Below are positions 2,292 to 60,018 of a stretch of 64,000 bases of DNA, in pieces. Under the pieces are notes generated by a model. It ran no database searches. It saw only the letters and a list, made by a program, of their open reading frames with translations, and was not told the DNA's origin. The DNA is from an uncultured Candidatus Saccharibacteria bacterium (GTDB lineage: Bacteria; Patescibacteriota; Saccharimonadia; Saccharimonadales; Saccharimonadaceae). Every line of letters starts with the position of its first letter. The first letter of the stretch is position 1. The position numbers were made by a program, and so were the translations under genes. Location: positions 140,513 through 204,512 of the forward strand of contig CALBZW010000011.1 in the NCBI GenBank assembly GCA_937889535.1. Reading direction: 5' to 3'.

Positions 2292-3092
2292 TTAGTGCGT
2301 AGAAACAAGGCCGAGAATGCCACGCAAAGCGTAGAGGGTGTCTTCGTGTGAGCGGACAGTAATAGTGTCGATACCCATTTGGACGACTGGATAATCGTTC
2401 CCTCCGGGTTGGGTCATATCACCAAAGTAGAGAACGTCGGACTTCTCAGCTTTTAACTCTTCAAGCAAGTGCGTCATACCAAATTCCTTGTTCATACCGG
2501 GCGCAGCGACATTGATAGAAGTTGTGCCACCAATTTCGTAGAGGAAATCAGGTAAGGCTTTTTGACATTCAGCGACAATCTGTTCGCGTTTTTTGCAATC
2601 TGGGTCCCAAGCGTATTTTTCTTCGGTGCCAGCGGTTTGACCAAGGGCGGAGAAAGTGACCTGAGAGAGGCGGTTTTCGATGATTTCATCGCCAGGCTTG
2701 AGCTTGTCGGCTTCCCAGTAGCCTAATTTCTCGGCGGCAGCCTGGAGAGTTGTTGTGATTTTTACAACGTCTTCCTCCTTGAGCGGATAATTATAGACTT
2801 GTTCCCAATCATGTTGCTCGAGGTTGTAACGATAATACTGTGTACCTTGAGCGACAAAAAGGTGGAGATGAGTTAATTGCTCTTCGGTGACGTCGACTTT
2901 TTTCAGCTCATCGACAATCTGGATAAGAAATTGCTCAAATTTTTGACCAGAGATCGGGCAAATTTCAAAATAATTAAGACAATTTTTCAGAACTTCGGCA
3001 ATTTCGGGCGGGATTGGGGTTTTCGCGATATTGAGCGTTTGGTCGATGTCAAATGCTAAAATTCGCTTGTGATTGGTTGGGGTTTGATACAT
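2292..3092 (-). CDS. HAD-IIB family hydrolase (phosphomannomutase-like)
   Basis: N-terminal DIDQT (DxDxT) motif and C-terminal FGD...GGNDYP motif. GGAGGAAAAT precedes the ATG. Confidence 0.7.
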   Translation of the reverse strand: MYQTPTNHKRILAFDIDQTLNIAKTPIPPEIAEVLKNCLNYFEICPISGQKFEQFLIQIVDELKKVDVTEEQLTHLHLFVAQGTQYYRYNLEQHDWEQVYNYPLKEEDVVKITTTLQAAAEKLGYWEADKLKPGDEIIENRLSQVTFSALGQTAGTEEKYAWDPDCKKREQIVAECQKALPDFLYEIGGTTSINVAAPGMNKEFGMTHLLEELKAEKSDVLYFGDMTQPGGNDYPVVQMGIDTITVRSHEDTLYALRGILGLVSTH

Positions 3093-3122
3093 ATTTTCCT
3101 CCGAAATTATTTTGGTATGGGC

Positions 3123-3151
3123 TTGACGAATGTTTTGTGTATTGTTAAAAT
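3123..3151 (+). promoter_or_regulatory. sigma70-type promoter for the short antisense RNA (TTGACG-17-TGtTAAAAT)
   Basis: TTGACG at 3123-3128, a 17-nt spacer, and an extended -10 with TAAAAT at 3146-3151. No plus-strand gene lies downstream before the terminator. Confidence 0.5.
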
Positions 3152-3157
3152 GGGACT

Positions 3158-3209
3158 ATAAGTTTTTATTTGTTGTTCTTAGTCTTGCGGCTGAGAACAA
3201 CTTTTATTT
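3158..3209 (+). ncRNA. candidate ~50-nt cis-antisense RNA overlapping the 3' end of sORF A
   Basis: Predicted TSS is about 7 nt after the -10. Hairpin GTTGTTCT (3172-3179) / AGAACAAC (3194-3201) is followed by TTTTATTT. Confidence 0.4.
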
Positions 3210-3255
3210 CGGAGACTCCAGATTGGAGCTCGAAAGTCAGTTTGACTCTACTCAT
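3166..3255 (-). CDS. small ORF A, 29 aa (MSRVKLTFELQSGVSEIKVVLSRKTKNNK)
   Basis: GGAAGGGGTGAGT lies immediately 5' of ATG 3255; stop TAA at 3166-3168. Paralogous to the sORF at 22719..22802. Below the 60-aa cutoff of the track. Confidence 0.45.
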   Translation of the reverse strand: MSRVKLTFELQSGVSEIKVVLSRKTKNNK

Positions 3256-3409
3256 ACTCACCCCTTCCACATTTTAATTTACTAAAGTTTTATCGACCTT
3301 AGTTCGTCTTGCCCATGCGTTCATGCTAGCAGAACAAAAAATAAAAGTAAACCCCTAGGGTTGATAAGTTGCAAAAATATGTTTTCGTATAGTTTTTCCA
3401 GGGTTATAG

Positions 3410-10525: not shown

Positions 10526-11698
10526 CTAAACATCGATCTGGTCGACACCGTATTCACGAGCGTACCTAGTATTCTCGGCGAGAACTTTTTCGTATTTTTC
10601 GACCAGATCATTGCGTTTTTCGAGTTTAGCGACATCAATCGCGAGGTGATACCTGGAGGCGCGATTCATACTCAGCATCTCAAACGGCGTCGTCGTACTG
10701 CCCTTTTCGAGAAAGCCGTGAATCTTGAGGCGTTTCGTATCAGTGTAATTACTAAGAATTTGCCTCAGAGTCGCCGGATAGCCATGGAAATTAGCTATAA
10801 TCGGCTTGTCGGACGTAAAGAGCTCCTGGAACTTGCTCGGGCTAAGCTTACACTCGGTCGTGCCAATCGCTTCGTAAGACAGAGCTGAGATATTGACGAA
10901 GCGGAATTTCTTCTCCGGAAGGTCTTTGCGGAGAATCTCTATGGCTTTTAGGGCTTCGCAGGAGACAATATCGCCGGCGGCAGTAAAAATGTAATCGGGA
11001 TTATCGTCCGAAGCAAAATCGAAGATACTAGCACCACCTTGACTAAATTGATCATCAGCCTGATGCGAATCAAGCCAGCGAGGCTGGTCGGTTTTGTTAA
11101 ATGTTGTAAGATTTACAACATTTGTCGAACGCATCATATAGATAAAGCTGGCTTCGGCCGCAACATCATCAACCGGGAAGAGACAGTTCGCATGATTGCT
11201 CGGGATACTGAGCAGCGTAGAAATCAGGGCTGGGGATTGATGGGTGAAGCCATTGTGATCTTGGCGCCAACAGGTACTGGTCGAGAGGAAATTTGCAGCG
11301 GGGTAATCTGGGCGCCATTTCACGCCGGCAGATTGGTCGAGGAATTTCAGATGCTGGAGAATCTGCGCGGTGATGATAGCGAAAAAAGCTTCATAACTCG
11401 TCATGACGGCAGGTTCGCCAGCGACGAGGTGACCGACCATACAAGCAAACAAGGCATTCTCGGAAAGCATCTCGACGATCCGACCATTCGCGGATTCGGG
11501 CAAATCGAATCCTTGGCGTGGGAGATTCCAAGCACGCTCAGAGACTTCGTAGACTGCGTCGAGCTTGTTACTAGTGGTTTCGTCAGGGGAAAAGAGATAA
11601 AAGTCTTCGTGTTTCGACATGTAATCAGCCATGATAGCACCGATACTACGAGCTGGCGAGAATTTGTCCTTGCCGGGGTTATCAACAATGTCAATCAT
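10526..11698 (-). CDS. xfp: phosphoketolase, C-terminal two-thirds (separate ORF)
   Basis: FSPDETTSNKL and typical XFP middle/C-terminal similarity. Its ATG overlaps the upstream stop as ATGA. Confidence 0.85.
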   Translation of the reverse strand: MIDIVDNPGKDKFSPARSIGAIMADYMSKHEDFYLFSPDETTSNKLDAVYEVSERAWNLPRQGFDLPESANGRIVEMLSENALFACMVGHLVAGEPAVMTSYEAFFAIITAQILQHLKFLDQSAGVKWRPDYPAANFLSTSTCWRQDHNGFTHQSPALISTLLSIPSNHANCLFPVDDVAAEASFIYMMRSTNVVNLTTFNKTDQPRWLDSHQADDQFSQGGASIFDFASDDNPDYIFTAAGDIVSCEALKAIEILRKDLPEKKFRFVNISALSYEAIGTTECKLSPSKFQELFTSDKPIIANFHGYPATLRQILSNYTDTKRLKIHGFLEKGSTTTPFEMLSMNRASRYHLAIDVAKLEKRNDLVEKYEKVLAENTRYAREYGVDQIDV

Positions 11699-16331: not shown

Positions 16332-16391
16332 GAACGGAGCATAGCACAAAATGAAAAAAATTAGCAAGCATAAGTGTGATATAATTTTGGT

Positions 16392-22302: not shown

Positions 22303-22656
22303 TTGAGACTATTCGGGTTGGCTTTTGTCCGTAGTGGAAACGTCAATCTTGTCTATGGTCAGGGTCGAGTTGTTGGTGAATATGGTTATGGATGGTCACG
22401 CACTAATGGAGGAAAGAGGAAGGAGACCACCGGCGCCACCACCATAGTACAGTTACCATTGGCTTTTGTCCGTAGTGGGTATGTCGCCCTCAACAATGGT
22501 ACTACTAGCTATGTCGGCTACTATGGCTATGGCTGGTCTAGCATTTCCAAGGCATCTACCGCAAGTGCGTATAATTTGTACTTTGGCATTACAAATGCTC
22601 CTCTTACGTCAGATAGCGGCAATCGTTATCATGGTTTCCCCCTCCGCTGCCTCTAA
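22303..22656 (+). CDS. truncated Fibrobacter-succinogenes-major-paralogous (FISUMP/DUF1566-like) domain ORF; possibly a gene remnant
   Basis: Two LAFVRSG...YGYGWS units and a GFPLRC end typical of the domain's C-terminus. No signal peptide and no convincing SD or -10; TTG start. Confidence 0.4.
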   Translation: MRLFGLAFVRSGNVNLVYGQGRVVGEYGYGWSRTNGGKRKETTGATTIVQLPLAFVRSGYVALNNGTTSYVGYYGYGWSSISKASTASAYNLYFGITNAPLTSDSGNRYHGFPLRCL

Positions 22657-22672
22657 CTAGGGGCGACAAAAA

Positions 22673-22701
22673 TTGCCTTATTTATAAAACTTTGATAGAA
22701 T
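22673..22701 (+). promoter_or_regulatory. promoter TTGCCT-17-TGaTAGAAT for the antisense RNA
   Basis: TTGCCT at 22673-22678, a 17-nt spacer, and TAGAAT at 22696-22701 with an extended TG. Confidence 0.5.
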
Positions 22702-22707
22702 AGGAAT

Positions 22708-22750
22708 TACAAGTATGGTTACTTTCGTTTTCGGACGAAAGTAATTTTTA
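22708..22750 (+). ncRNA. candidate ~45-nt cis-antisense RNA overlapping the 3' end of sORF B
   Basis: 9-bp hairpin TTACTTTCG / CGAAAGTAA (22719-22744) followed by TTTTTA. Confidence 0.4.
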
Positions 22751-22802
22751 TCTTCAGGTCAGCATCGAGCTTAATAAAGCCGCACTTAATCCGTACTTTC
22801 AT
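22719..22802 (-). CDS. small ORF B, 27 aa (MKVRIKCGFIKLDADLKIKITFVRKRK)
   Basis: GAGAAAGGAGTGCAGT lies 5' of ATG 22802; stop TAA at 22719-22721. Paralog of sORF A (shared R-x-K..F.......IK[VI].[LF].RK.K). Confidence 0.45.
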   Translation of the reverse strand: MKVRIKCGFIKLDADLKIKITFVRKRK

Positions 22803-22941
22803 ACTGCACTCCTTTCTCCCACCTATGACCAAGTTAAGCTACATGTCGCCCCTAGGATTCAGACTAGCATAAAATTGAAAATTTTAGCAAGCATAAGACT
22901 AGTAGACAGGAAAGTTCTCCCTGCTACCTTCCCTTTAAAAT

Positions 22942-22975
22942 AAAAACAAGAGAGCAATCTCTCTTGTTTTTATTT
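22942..22975. terminator. bidirectional intrinsic terminator
   Basis: AAAAACAAGAGAG-caat-CTCTCTTGTTTTT. Confidence 0.8.
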
Positions 22976-23062
22976 TGGCGGAAGGGACAGGATTCGAACC
23001 TGCGAGGCTATTAACCTGCTGGTTTTCAAGACCAGTGCCATCAACCACTCGGCCACCCTTCC
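22976..23062 (-). tRNA. tRNA-Ser (anticodon TGA), long variable arm, CCA encoded
   Basis: Hand-folded. Acceptor GGAAGGG/CCCTTCC, loop CTTGAAA. TGCTATAAT lies 7 nt upstream of +1. Confidence 0.9.
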
Positions 23063-24390: not shown

Positions 24391-26493
24391 ATGAAATATA
24401 AGTATAAAATAAATGGCTTAGATTGTGCGAATTGCGCGCGTGAAGTCGAAGAATTTTTAGTGAAAGATAAACGTTTTAAAAACGTCGTGGTAAATTTTAA
24501 CACGGCGAAGTTATCTTTTGAAGCGAAAGCAGAAATACCGATCAACGAACTGAATAGACTAGTGCAGAGTGTCGAGTCGGAAGCAACTATTAGCGAGATT
24601 GAAGCAATACGATCGAATGCTGCAAAAAACGCTCAATCGTGCGAAACTTGCAACGGCGCCAAGAATAATAAGACAGAAGTTAAAGGTGGTTTACGCGAGC
24701 GGATTTGGTTTTTGATTATTGGGATAGTAGTTGGAGTTTCGGCTTATTTTGCGCCATTGCCAGAGCTAGTGAAAGTTATTTGTTACGTAGTAGGTTATGG
24801 TTTCCTATTGTGGCATACGGCGCTAACTGCCGCGAAAACCTTGATTAAAAGTCATGCATTGAATGAAAACACCTTAATTACAATTTCGTGTATCGGCGCA
24901 CTGGTGATTGGCGAAGTGCTAGAGGGGATGATGGTAATTGCGCTATATACGATTGGCAAGATATTGGAAGCAAAGGCGCTGAATAATTCGCGGCGCTCCA
25001 TTGAAGGTCTGCTCGATATCAAGCAGCCATTTGCGGAGCGAAAAGAAGGGCGGAGACTGGTGCGAATTAACGTGGAGGAAATTGAGCCAGGAGATATTCT
25101 GGTCGTGAAGAAAGGCGAGCGAGCGCCAGTAGACGGAGAAATCTTAAAAGGCGAGACTGAACTGGATCTGTCAGCATTAACTGGTGAGAGCGAAAAAGTT
25201 AAAGTCGGCGTAGGTGAGCGGATATTGTCGGGAGCAATCAACTTAGGGAATGCGATCGAAATGCGAGCGACGACGGATTATGCGGATTCGACGGTAGCGA
25301 AAATTCTAGAGTTACTAGAAGATGCAACGGACCGCAAGGCAAAAACTGAAACCGTAGTAGCAAAAATTAGTAAAGTTTATACGCCAGTGATTTTGGGGTT
25401 GGCAATCCTAGTAAGTATAGTCTTACCGGTAATATTCCAAGTGTCGGTCGTGGAGAGTATTTATCGGGGGCTAACCTTTCTGGTAATTTCCTGCCCGTGC
25501 GCAATCGCGATTTCCGTGCCGCTGTCATACTTCACGGGAATTGGTGCAGGAAGTAAGCATGGGATTTTAATAAAGGGTAGCAACTACTTAGATGCATTGA
25601 GCGATGCGAAAAACATTATCTTTGATAAAACTGGGACATTGACCGATGGTAGCTTCGCAGTGTCGGAAATTAAAATTTCTGATCCAAAGTATTCTAAGGC
25701 AGAAGTTATTGAGATTTTAGCGCAAGGCGAAGCGTTATCGAATCATCCGATTGCGCAGTCGATTTTGAAACTATATGACGATGAGGTTGATACGAGCAAC
25801 GTGCGAGATTTTAAGGAAATCGCGGGTGAAGGAATTTCCTATACGCTGGGAAAAGACAAAATTAGCGTCGGAAATAAACTACTATGCCCGTGTCAAGAAG
25901 ATGCGGTATTACATCTAAACATTAACGGTAAACATGTCGCGTCAATTACGATTAATGACGGAGTGAAGACTAACGCTGAAGAAGCAGTGGCGAAGCTCAC
26001 GAAGCTTGGGCTGACAAGTTATATGTTCACGGGGGATAAGAATTCAGTAGCGCGAGTCGTAGCGAAGAAGCTTGGAATTGATCACGTACAAGCGGAGATG
26101 TTGCCGACAGATAAGTTTCAGGCATACGAAAAAGTTGCGGCAAAAAACGGGATGACGATCTTCGTAGGGGACGGGATTAACGATGCGCCGGTTTTGAAAC
26201 GAGCAGATATCGGGATTGCAATGGGCGGTGTGGGTTCGGAATCGGCGATTGAAGCAGCGGACATCGTTATTATGAATGACGATTTATTGAAAATTCCACA
26301 AGTGATGGAGGTTTCGCATTACACGAAACGGATAATTTATCAGAATTTAATCTTCGCAATTGGCGTAAAAATCATAATACTTGCGTTAAGTGTGTTTGGA
26401 CTGGCGAATATGTGGTGGGCGGTGTTCGCGGATACGGGAGTAACTCTACTTGCGATTTTGAATACGTTGAGAATTATGTATAGGTTTCAGTAA
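24391..26493 (+). CDS. heavy-metal (Cd/Zn/Co-type) P1B-type ATPase
   Basis: N-terminal HMA GLDCANCA, plus CPC, DKTGTLT and GDGINDAP motifs. ATG 24391 is preferred over TTG 24382. Confidence 0.9.
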   Translation: MKYKYKINGLDCANCAREVEEFLVKDKRFKNVVVNFNTAKLSFEAKAEIPINELNRLVQSVESEATISEIEAIRSNAAKNAQSCETCNGAKNNKTEVKGGLRERIWFLIIGIVVGVSAYFAPLPELVKVICYVVGYGFLLWHTALTAAKTLIKSHALNENTLITISCIGALVIGEVLEGMMVIALYTIGKILEAKALNNSRRSIEGLLDIKQPFAERKEGRRLVRINVEEIEPGDILVVKKGERAPVDGEILKGETELDLSALTGESEKVKVGVGERILSGAINLGNAIEMRATTDYADSTVAKILELLEDATDRKAKTETVVAKISKVYTPVILGLAILVSIVLPVIFQVSVVESIYRGLTFLVISCPCAIAISVPLSYFTGIGAGSKHGILIKGSNYLDALSDAKNIIFDKTGTLTDGSFAVSEIKISDPKYSKAEVIEILAQGEALSNHPIAQSILKLYDDEVDTSNVRDFKEIAGEGISYTLGKDKISVGNKLLCPCQEDAVLHLNINGKHVASITINDGVKTNAEEAVAKLTKLGLTSYMFTGDKNSVARVVAKKLGIDHVQAEMLPTDKFQAYEKVAAKNGMTIFVGDGINDAPVLKRADIGIAMGGVGSESAIEAADIVIMNDDLLKIPQVMEVSHYTKRIIYQNLIFAIGVKIIILALSVFGLANMWWAVFADTGVTLLAILNTLRIMYRFQ

Positions 26494-26496
26494 AAT

Positions 26497-26527
26497 AAAT
26501 CCCCCGATAGTATCGGGGGATTTATTG
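26497..26527. terminator. bidirectional intrinsic terminator
   Basis: AAATCCCCCGAT...ATCGGGGGATTT. Confidence 0.8.
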
Positions 26528-26535
26528 CGTGCCGT

Positions 26536-26826
26536 TTAGCGTGCGCAGAAACCGCCCGCATTATCTTCAAACCATTTTTCAAATTCATCAAGGTAAGCGT
26601 CGACGCCGATGCTCTTAGCATAAGATTTTTGGCTATCGAGATCATAACTTAGCCCACTTGCGGCGTAACCGGTGATTTCATTTTCATTATACATAATCGT
26701 GATATCACCGCGAGACGATTCGCATTTCATCTTTTTGGATGTGAGTGAAACTATGCCGATAATTATGGCAGCGAGAGCAAAAATGCCAAGCACGACGGCG
26801 CCGATAATCATTAAAACTTTTTTCAT
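26536..26826 (-). CDS. small membrane-anchored protein, unknown function
   Basis: N-terminal TM segment; AAGGAGGTAAT SD. Confidence 0.65.
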   Translation of the reverse strand: MKKVLMIIGAVVLGIFALAAIIIGIVSLTSKKMKCESSRGDITIMYNENEITGYAASGLSYDLDSQKSYAKSIGVDAYLDEFEKWFEDNAGGFCAR

Positions 26827-50033: not shown

Positions 50034-50151
50034 TCAAGTACCTTTCCTAATTGTTGTGTCGATATTTTTCTCTATACCGACGGGGTAACAAATAAATATA
50101 AATTAATAACTTTCTGTTTTAATTATACCATAAAAATGACTCAATGTAAGT

Positions 50152-50182
50152 AAAATACCTCGGTTTTCGCCGAGGTATTATT
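50152..50182. terminator. bidirectional intrinsic terminator
   Basis: AATACCTCGG-N6-CCGAGGTATT flanked by A and T tracts. Confidence 0.7.
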
Positions 50183-50256
50183 CAGTGTGATGTACGTTAG
50201 CCATAAAACATATTGTTTATAAGTTACTTAAAGACTTAAATGCAGTCGTATCTATT

Positions 50257-59109: not shown

Positions 59110-60018
59110 CTAGGCGCCGATGCGATCTTTAGAATTCTTACGGCTAGCGTTATGCTCGATATATTCGATAATCTTTTCGGCGACGTTGCGGCCAGTGACT
59201 TTTTCGATACCAAATCCAGGCGAAGCATTAACTTCAAGGACAAGCGGACCGCGCTCGGAGCGCATTAGATCAACACCAGCGACATGGAGACCCATGACTT
59301 TTGCGGCCTTGACCACAATGCGTTTTTCTTCGGCGGTGAGCTTGACGCTCGTTCCCTCGCCACCCTTATGGAGATTACTGCGAAAATCGTCATCTAGCGA
59401 TTGGCGTTTCATACTAGCAACTACACGTGAGCCAACGACGAAAGCACGAATATCGGTCCCAGCGGATTCTTTGACGTATTCCTGGAGCAAGATATTCGTA
59501 CCGTCTTCGTTATAAAGATAAAAAGCTTGGAGAGCAGACTTCGCAGCCTTCTTGGTCTCAGCCAGAACAACACCATTACCATGCGTACTAGTAGCGAGTT
59601 TGATAATCACCGGGAGACCGATTTGCTCAATTAGGTCGTCAATATCAGCGGTGTTGCGACTCACGAGAGTTTTCGGAGTGTCGATGCCGGCCTTGGTCAG
59701 AATTTGCTGTGAGCGAAGTTTGTCGCGCGAGCGAGAAATCGCAATCGAGCTTGAGGCGGTCCAAGCGCCCTGCATCTCGAACTGGCGTACAATTGCGCAG
59801 CCATAACGTGTCATGCTGTTGGCAATACGCGGAACAATAGCATCATACCCCGGCAACTTTTCCCCACGATAGAAAATATTCGGATGCTTCTCGTCAAGTG
59901 AAAGATAACAATCTTTGTATTTAATCACGCGCACTTGATGCCCATGTTGCTCAGCCTCAGCAACCAAGCGACGCGTAGAGTAGTTTGCGTTTCCGTTCGA
60001 CAAAATTGCGATTTTCAT
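59110..60018 (-). CDS. rimK: RimK-family alpha-L-glutamate ligase (ATP-grasp)
   Basis: MKIAILS...YSTRRL and typical ATP-grasp motifs. ATG lies 6 nt after TGGTAAAAT. Confidence 0.9.
   Translation of the reverse strand: MKIAILSNGNANYSTRRLVAEAEQHGHQVRVIKYKDCYLSLDEKHPNIFYRGEKLPGYDAIVPRIANSMTRYGCAIVRQFEMQGAWTASSSIAISRSRDKLRSQQILTKAGIDTPKTLVSRNTADIDDLIEQIGLPVIIKLATSTHGNGVVLAETKKAAKSALQAFYLYNEDGTNILLQEYVKESAGTDIRAFVVGSRVVASMKRQSLDDDFRSNLHKGGEGTSVKLTAEEKRIVVKAAKVMGLHVAGVDLMRSERGPLVLEVNASPGFGIEKVTGRNVAEKIIEYIEHNASRKNSKDRIGA

Follow-up and report, generated by a model that had tools for sequence, protein, structure and literature searches.

How is a unit of about 200 nt put together that carries a small open reading frame (sORF) on one strand, a promoter and a terminator on the other and a perfect inverted repeat at its ends, and what might it do for its host? 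The question is raised by cassette B, at 22657-22855 of a 64,000-nt stretch of DNA (hereafter the window) from a Saccharibacteria (TM7) genome near Candidatus Nanosyncoccus, and by its putative paralogue copy A, at 3117-3316. Saccharibacteria are ultra-small epibionts with reduced genomes, and their RNA-based regulation has been little studied; the sORF itself is left uncalled by gene callers in every assembly examined. Our analysis points with good confidence to an antisense-controlled small-protein gene of the architecture described below. On balance we also favour, with modest confidence, the narrower reading that cassette B is an autonomous two-RNA module whose construction, and most likely also its regulation, follows the pattern of a type I toxin-antitoxin locus; if that term strictly demands a toxic peptide, our confidence falls a little short of even. 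RNA synthesis, repression by the antisense RNA and harm done by the peptide we infer from the sequence.

Layout of cassette B and its proposed mode of action

The features of cassette B are the following.

22719-22802, minus strand: sORF of 27 codons plus stop, encoding MKVRIKCGFIKLDADLKIKITFVRKRK; stop codon at 22719-22721; supported by allele conservation
22813-22809, minus strand: Shine-Dalgarno sequence (SD) AGGAG, 6 nt 5' of the ATG at 22802
22861-22890, minus strand: predicted promoter of the sORF mRNA, TTGCTA (22890-22885), 18-nt spacer, TGc-TAGTCT (22869-22861)
22844-22855, minus strand: 5' arm of helix P1, CUAGGGGCGACA, at the mRNA 5' end; pairs with 22657-22668
22657-22668, minus strand: 3' arm of helix P1, UGUCGCCCCUAG, adjoining the stop codon of the convergent gene orf117
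22808-22823, minus strand: 5' strand of helix P3, containing the SD; pairs with the anti-SD of the 3' untranslated region (UTR) at 22694-22707 in the consensus fold of seven alleles
22694-22707, minus strand: anti-SD segment of the 3' UTR, AUUCCUAUUCUAUC; positions 33-48 pair with 158-171 in the consensus fold
22673-22701, plus strand: antisense-RNA promoter, TTGCCT-17-TGaTAGAAT, with extended -10 box
22708-22752, plus strand: predicted antisense RNA of ~45 nt, with terminator hairpin 22717-22746 and U tract, from a terminator scan

The original prediction had read a ribosome-binding site, start and stop on the minus strand, an extended -10 promoter on the plus strand and a -10 element outside the inverted repeat. 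AGGAG, the ATG at 22802 and the stop codon at 22719-22721 lie where they had been placed, as do TTGCCT-17-TAGAAT preceded by TG at 22673-22701 and the minus-strand TGCTAGTCT at 22861-22869, within TGCTAGTCTGAA at 22858-22869. The hairpin had been given a 9-bp stem; the perfect stem comprises 10 bp (22719-22728 with 22735-22744), or 13 pairs if plus-strand G·U pairs are counted, and the terminator-like hairpin at 22717-22746 is followed on the plus strand by the T-rich TTTATCTT. The perfect 12-nt inverted repeat is formed by CTAGGGGCGACA (22657-22668) and TGTCGCCCCTAG (22844-22855), with 175 nt between the arms.

For this layout we propose the following mode of action. The weak minus-strand promoter would give an mRNA of ~200 nt whose first 12 nt pair with its last 12 nt (P1) and whose SD/AUG region would be held in P3 by a conserved segment of the 3' UTR, so that the full-length transcript would be poorly translatable. 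Its product would be a cationic peptide of 25-29 residues with an amphipathic beta-strand pattern. The stronger, near-consensus plus-strand promoter would yield an antisense RNA of ~45-50 nt with its own intrinsic terminator. With perfect complementarity to the final third of the ORF and the beginning of the 3' UTR, this RNA may, by analogy with 3'-overlapping type I systems, silence the mRNA through duplex-dependent cleavage or by stabilising the closed fold.

Conservation of the predicted fold, antisense unit and peptide

The B locus was found in many assemblies through exact-protein look-ups with its flanking genes; such look-ups also place the same window genes in mouse-gut metagenome assemblies, and the best matches of the YebC gene beside cassette B are Saccharibacteria metagenome-assembled genomes at 64-90% identity. 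Cassette B falls into three allele groups, namely the window type (with variants at 98-99.6% identity in L103, L105, L108 and L109), L110/L112 and L106/L107. Between these groups the 5' UTR is 92-98%, the ORF 52-59% and the 3' UTR 65-77% identical, and the flanking Nudix gene is 93-97% identical between strain alleles. Orthologues of copy A were reached through homologues of the adjacent PMM gene and come from three further species. The family comprises seven distinct members, and a comparable element in relatives, absence of which would have spoken against the original prediction, is found both as strain alleles of B and as orthologues of A. Copy A shows the matching arrangement of repeat, plus-strand promoter and terminator that had been claimed for the two units.

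3117-3316, minus strand: copy A, a paralogous module; sORF 3166-3255 (MSRVKLTFELQSGVSEIKVVLSRKTKNNK), P1 arms 3303-3316 and 3117-3130
3123-3151, plus strand: copy A antisense promoter, TTGACG-17-TAAAAT
3172-3201, plus strand: copy A antisense terminator, from the terminator scan
3323-3351, minus strand: copy A mRNA promoter, TTTACT-17-TGc-TAGCAT, read from the sequence

The inverted repeat of copy A measures 14 nt, is 86% complementary and leaves 172 nt between its arms. How closely A and B are related depends on the method. The similarity that had been noted between them is weak: it shows in a global nucleotide alignment (z = 4.7, with 0 of 1000 shuffles as good); it does not appear in local alignment, which is not above shuffles, nor in BLASTN, which finds none between A and B or with 13 other-species YebC loci. 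Peptide alignments of A and B give p ~0.01-0.08. A covariance model built from B alleles only detects the A-type orthologues in other species (E = 0.0013-0.015), and we therefore take A and B to be distant relatives. Common to both types are the promoter type, a 5' hairpin containing GGUC(G)AUA, a UAUYYUAUCA anti-SD/-10 segment and the KIK(I/V)T codons. MAFFT misplaces the P1 arms when A-type and B-type sequences are aligned together. Weak matches of the model at 50134-50253, 26485-26583 and L002:15116-15271 were rejected as ordinary terminator hairpins without an sORF.

The minus-strand RNA is predicted to fold far more stably than its shuffles in all members (z = -5.0 for B and -6.6 for A; range -4.3 to -6.7). 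The shared fold consists of P1, which joins the ends, a small 5' hairpin, the long-range P3 between the SD/AUG region and the 3' UTR, and a hairpin at the stop codon. The arms of P1 differ over the seven members (CUAGGGGCGACA, AUGGGCAAGACGAA, AGGGCGG..UUGACUG, GGGGUGC..UGACGCAA and GGGUGAAAAUCUGAC), yet in every one of them the ends form a duplex of -17.8 to -26.6 kcal/mol. Shuffles give -5.6 to -10.2, and 0-8 in 1000 of them were as good. Six of seven alleles keep all 12 pairs of P1, with G·U pairs in four alleles and one A·C mismatch in that of L110, and three of four substitutions in the arms yield G·U on the minus-strand RNA. P3 contains four G·U pairs per sequence, so that this helix is possible solely on the minus-strand RNA. 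Because the G·U pairs of the B alleles would be A·C mismatches on the opposite strand, both helices can be assigned to the minus-strand transcript; the minimum free energy of the whole unit, compared between sense and reverse complement, does not discriminate the strands, and the individual helices alone do so. In the A-type alignment 90% of the cells are paired. The 13 compensatory pairs found there exceed the number in every one of 500 shuffles (6.5 +/- 1.6) and the 1-3 obtained with slid partners; adding L152 raises the number to 18, though MAFFT mis-aligns its longer arms. The unpaired probability of the AUG is at most 0.22 in six of the seven members. The computed folds thus contain both of the features expected of an mRNA that prevents its own translation in type I systems, SD/anti-SD pairing and a 5'-3' interaction.

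The 5' arm begins 6-7 nt 3' of the conserved -10 box. As the arms vary yet always pair, with strand-specific G·U, what had been described as a terminal inverted repeat is better understood as the predicted 5'-3' closing helix of an mRNA of ~200 nt. The repeat itself is real and perfect; its role as the end of a mobile unit is not borne out, given the covarying arms, the lack of a target-site duplication and the lack of further copies in the window and the related loci scanned.

An extended -10 promoter and an intrinsic terminator stand opposite the sORF in every member. Over the family the antisense promoters read TTGCCT, TTGCTT, TTGACG, TTGACT or TTGACA, 16-17 nt and TGnTA(G/A)(A/G)AT (TTGCTT-17-TGaTAAGAT in L110 and L107; TTGACG, TTGACT or TTGACA, 16-17 nt and TGnTA(A/G)AAT in the A type); they match 9-10 of 12 consensus positions and have TG before the -10 box. 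The mRNA promoters keep their position and are weaker, with TTGCTA or TTTACT, 17-18 nt, and TGc-TAGTCT, TAGCAT, TACCAT or TAAGCT. The arrangement TTTACT/TTGCTA-17/18-TGC-TA(G/C/A)nnT is present in all A-type orthologues and moves with the cassette where this is inverted in L152. In B the -10 box of the mRNA promoter is weak (three of six positions) and is not picked up by a consensus scan. A weak toxin promoter and a strong antitoxin promoter are the usual type I arrangement. Only 0.18 occurrences of the pattern TGCTAGNNTGAA would be expected in the window, which contains three; the third, at 59408, was discarded because it lies inside a coding gene.

Elsewhere in the window, at ~16342-16374 on the minus strand, a 33-nt segment upstream of the LTD-domain gene 14745-16442 matches the promoter region of the B mRNA at 91% identity (CTTATGCTTGCTAA...TGCTA). 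This near-copy suggests a promoter or regulator-binding site common to unrelated genes, and it supports the view that the B mRNA promoter represents a real promoter type in this genome.

The hairpin at the stop codon is more stable as plus-strand than as minus-strand RNA in four of five members (window B -13.1 vs -10.2, L110 -18.6 vs -5.7, window A -18.2 vs -10.7, L152 -14.9 vs -11.8) and about equal in L107 (-17.7 vs -18.2). Because of this asymmetry, and because the plus-strand U tract is always 3' of it, we assign the hairpin to the terminator of the antisense RNA, whose stem shows two compensatory pairs. With a start site deduced from the -10 box, the antisense RNA is predicted to be ~45-50 nt long. 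It would be complementary to the last ~11 codons of the sORF and to the first ~11 nt of the 3' UTR, leaving the anti-SD core uncovered. Two overlapping predicted transcripts would thus each leave a structural footprint of their own. The two strands also share letters: 22694-22707 serves as mRNA anti-SD on one strand and as antisense -10 region on the other, and at 22745-22760 and its equivalents in all members the codons for Lys-Ile-Lys-(Ile/Val)-Thr read, on the opposite strand, as the stem and U tract of the antisense terminator.

The reading frame is open in all seven distinct members, with 25-29 codons, length differences in multiples of three and an SD at 5-7 nt. The B peptides are MKVRIKCGFIKLDADLKIKITFVRKRK, MVRVRIRVWRVCIQANLKIKITLTHKKRR and MVIRIVCEGDIAKADLKITFAKRRK, whose ORF lengths differ by 6 and 12 nt, and both ORF substitutions of the 98% B allele are synonymous (GGC to GGG, TTT to TTC). 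The A-type orthologues encode MKEVSLELVLKERKVHKIKITARKDGQ (L142/L144), MKKVSLSLDVQISDTSKIKVTLEQKPKSN (L145-L148) and MRKVSLELSMNNRQVQKIKVTLSNTEG (L152). Over the four A-type species Val4 is written GTC, GTT, GTG and GTT and Leu6 CTG or TTA, and residues 4, 6 and 8 are hydrophobic in all four species, residue 10 in three. These codon swaps and the hydrophobic pattern appear to be the signature of selection on a translated product. They fall in the N-terminal strand of the ORF, a region without conserved RNA helix, which makes this strand, on the sequence comparison, independent evidence for selection at the protein level. The peptides are cationic (net charge +3 to +10) and keep an i, i+2 hydrophobic pattern; in the N-terminal strand the beta hydrophobic moment is 0.38-0.86 and the alpha moment 0.09-0.50. 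Taken together, the ORF, both promoters and the terminator are kept in three divergent B alleles and in four A-type species, and each element bears structural constraints specific to its strand, which supports the reading of the unit as an sORF with a predicted antisense RNA.

Genomic setting and rival explanations

Copy A ends 25 nt 5' of the PMM start codon on the same strand, without promoter or terminator between, and its mRNA promoter probably also drives PMM-TIM, likely as the sole promoter of the PMM gene (2292-3092). In L140 the cassette promoter and the P1 arms remain before PMM and the sORF/antisense interior is deleted; L137 and L149 lack the cassette, and a different promoter precedes PMM there; in L152 the whole unit, including both promoters, is inverted and faces away from PMM, which has its own promoter TTGCAT-17-TATAAT. 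The promoter before PMM-TIM is thus that of the cassette for the window, for L142 and L145 and for the gutted L140; L137, L149 and L152 have one of the operon's own. From these sequences this housekeeping operon seems to have swapped promoters repeatedly and to have come to rely on a dispensable module for its only promoter.

Copy B and orf117 converge, and the next gene that runs in the direction of copy B is 380 nt away. It lies ~50-110 nt from an integration hot spot, the 3' end of tRNA-Ser TGA (22976-23062, minus strand), where several assemblies break. The distance from tRNA-Ser to tRNA-Met is 107-130 nt in the two nearest other species (L001, L002) and 1.28 kb in the window, where it holds cassette B, orf117 and Nudix. 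In strain L099, whose Nudix protein is identical, B is absent and homology stops exactly at the boundary of the P1 3' arm; the region is rearranged and not precisely excised. Between tRNA-Ser and the cassette, some strains belonging to this species (L081, L083 and L107) carry an island of ~7.7 kb that encodes a large serine recombinase of 541 aa, and another (L106) carries a phage-like element with integrase and portal protein. By its position, cassette B appears to border the hot spot without being part of the inserted elements. A perfect 18-bp hairpin (AAAATAAAAACAAGAGAG / CTCTCTTGTTTTTATTTT), flanked on each side by A and T runs, follows tRNA-Ser directly at 22937-22976; it probably terminates transcription in both directions, separating the tRNA from the cassette promoter.

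The convergent neighbour orf117 (22303-22656, plus strand) contains the internal repeat LAFVRSG...YGYGWS twice and ends in ...GFPLRCL. Its family is hypervariable and multi-copy: L002 has three partial paralogues close to tRNA-Met, and L099 carries a further copy. Strains differ in the length of the ORF (68 to 121 aa). Neither Pfam nor NCBIfam yields a match to it, and an impression of a Fibrobacter-type paralogous domain was not confirmed.

The inverted repeat at the unit ends, the adjoining hot spot and the presence, absence and inversion at orthologous sites might recall a miniature inverted-repeat transposable element bounded by 12-bp terminal repeats. We regard this as very improbable. 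A and B have arms of unrelated sequence, and BLASTN sees no similarity between the units; substitutions in the arms preserve RNA pairing through G·U; no target-site duplication is seen at the B flanks (TAA|...|GAT). A peptide hidden Markov model and the B-allele RNA covariance model, run over the window and ~650 kb of related loci, found no further copies beyond one per type. No strain has a precise empty site, and phage and plasmid BLAST and scans of a viral collection with two patterns gave no match. The empty-site comparison called for by the original prediction does reveal presence, absence and inversion between species, and it reveals no precise transposon excision, which suggests gain, loss and rearrangement at the level of a gene. 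A scan of JGI metagenomes with the 18-mer ATAGGTGGGAGAAAGGAG returned 22 matches, all unrelated; one of these, in L136 (JAAROH010008173.1, ~11000-11300, minus strand), lies beside a CRISPR array with repeat GTCGCACTCTTCATGGGTGCGTGGATTGAAAT. The setting of copy A, with nothing between it and the PMM start 25 nt away, and the persistence of promoter and P1 arms without the interior in L140, would fit a cis-regulatory 5' leader, made of an upstream ORF and a structured RNA, for PMM-TIM (A) or Nudix (B). This too we consider improbable, if less so, since the inverted cassette of L152, with PMM under its own promoter, contradicts a leader, as do the convergence of copy B with orf117 and its distance of 380 nt from the next co-directional gene; moreover, the peptides contain no run of a single regulatory amino acid, and a leader would not need the conserved antisense promoter and terminator. 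The inversion in L152, the absences in other loci and the orientation of copy B thus argue for an autonomous module.

Against the type I reading itself stand a number of observations. An alpha-helical transmembrane domain is found in almost every known type I toxin, SymE and RalR being the exceptions (PMC8309996). The cassette peptides have no hydrophobic stretch: their grand average of hydropathy is -0.7 to +0.1 (-0.68 to +0.08), at most 3-5 residues in a row are neither polar nor charged, and the best 15-residue Kyte-Doolittle window scores 0.09-0.89, against 1.8-3.2 for six known toxins. They cannot form a transmembrane helix, the hydrophobic helix that is typical of type I toxins. Searches of Pfam and NCBIfam with four family peptides gave no match at E up to 10, and an Rfam search over the cassette was likewise negative, both with gathering scores and with E allowed to reach 10, so that none of the known families (Hok, Fst, Ldr, TisB, Ibs, ShoB, TxpA/BsrG, AapA, SymE; Sok, Sib, IstR, RatA and others) is matched in these three collections; an exact protein look-up with a 37-aa ORF product returned no record. 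KIK(I/V)T, the most conserved motif of the peptides (AAAAUAAARRUUACU), is forced in part by the 3' stem and U tract of the antisense terminator, whose complement it is, and is therefore not independent evidence for selection on the protein. A regionally hypervariable island may account for the strong divergence of the B core, since the neighbouring orf117 too is only 66-87% identical in the diverged B alleles. Occlusion of the SD varies in single-sequence ensembles (unpaired probability 0.16-0.68), and there is no obvious mRNA terminator after P1, the copy A mRNA probably reading into PMM.

Some of these points would suit an antisense-regulated small basic protein with a non-toxic role, such as nucleic acid or ribosome binding or regulation, which we hold to be a possible but rather doubtful alternative. 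A cationic, non-hydrophobic peptide without transmembrane helix is unlike nearly all type I toxins; the A type is kept at one locus in at least four species, which suggests a vertically inherited useful gene; and the cassette promoter apparently drives PMM-TIM too in the window, L142 and L145. A useful gene of this kind sits poorly with a module that is dispensable, having been lost, gutted or inverted without replacement in L137, L140, L149 and L152, and with B alleles that diverge far faster than flanking genes. Closed ends, pairing of the AUG/SD region and a stronger antisense promoter are, besides, typical of a product that is kept off (PMC8594479). We retain the type I-like two-RNA module as the reading that we favour. 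As to its effector, it is tempting to speculate, although we give this no great likelihood, that the peptide is a new kind of toxin, a cationic amphipathic beta-hairpin of 25-29 residues acting on nucleic acids, ribosomes or membrane surfaces, within a type I family of Saccharibacteria/Patescibacteria, and that the fast-diverging core at tRNA-Ser reflects selection for strain-specific pairs.

Relation to known type I systems

According to a 2025 paper, type I systems are known solely in Proteobacteria, Firmicutes and Tenericutes, with Cyanobacteria proposed as an addition (PMC12390103), and no paper pairing "type I toxin-antitoxin" with "Saccharibacteria" came up in our full-text literature search. 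The window genome would hold a complete antisense-controlled mini-gene as two paralogues, with orthologues in several species. Should the peptide prove toxic, the phyletic range of type I systems would be wider and would include a class of effector without membrane helix; a covariance model for the cassette family would find genes that annotation pipelines miss.

In its RNA anatomy the cassette can be likened to a type I toxin mRNA because it matches the descriptors compiled for these in T1TAdb, namely SD/anti-SD pairing, 5' stem-loops, a 5'-3' long-distance interaction and terminators (PMC8594479). The closest parallels are aapA1/IsoA1 of Helicobacter pylori and hok/sok of plasmid R1, which have an ORF of ~30 codons on an mRNA of ~200 nt as the cassette does (PMC5416894, PMC8594479). 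In both, end pairing and occlusion of ribosome binding keep the full-length transcript untranslated, as is predicted for the cassette; a constitutive cis-antisense RNA has its own promoter, the counterpart of our predicted RNA; and small modules lie at several chromosomal loci, as in the cassette family. The hok/sok details of this comparison are general knowledge. The two systems differ from the cassette in where the antisense RNA lies, which is over the 5' region or the translation start of their toxin mRNA and, by prediction, over the ORF's 3' end in the cassette. A transmembrane or amphipathic alpha-helix is formed by Hok and AapA1 and by none of the cassette peptides, and there is no sequence or Rfam/Pfam similarity.

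In the position of the antisense RNA the 3'-overlapping systems of Firmicutes are nearer. In txpA/RatA, bsrG/SR4 and yonT/SR6 of Bacillus subtilis and in par RNAI/RNAII-Fst of Enterococcus, toxin and antitoxin are transcribed towards each other, and the antitoxin RNA has its complement in the 3' portion of the toxin mRNA; these loci are often in prophage or island regions. The cassette resembles them in its convergent transcripts and 3' complementarity, and duplex-dependent degradation would be expected here likewise. Their antitoxins are, however, 100-220 nt long with overlaps of ~75-120 nt or more, against ~45-50 nt for the predicted antisense RNA of the cassette, whose terminator lies inside the ORF, and their toxins are hydrophobic membrane peptides in another host phylum.

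For the effector, SymE and RalR are cytosolic type I toxins and illustrate that a membrane peptide is not required (PMC8309996); they are nucleases of 64-113 residues with recognisable folds, in contrast to the 25-29 residues of the cassette peptides, which have no detectable homology. A likeness, in composition statistics only, exists to cationic beta-hairpin antimicrobial peptides, which are likewise short and strongly cationic, with alternating hydrophobic and basic residues and a high beta moment; the cassette peptides lack a signal peptide and conserved cysteine pairs. Altogether, what is new here in comparison with the known systems is the phylum, the type of peptide and an unusually short predicted antisense RNA with its terminator inside the ORF, in a module that would work like a type I locus yet belongs to no described family.

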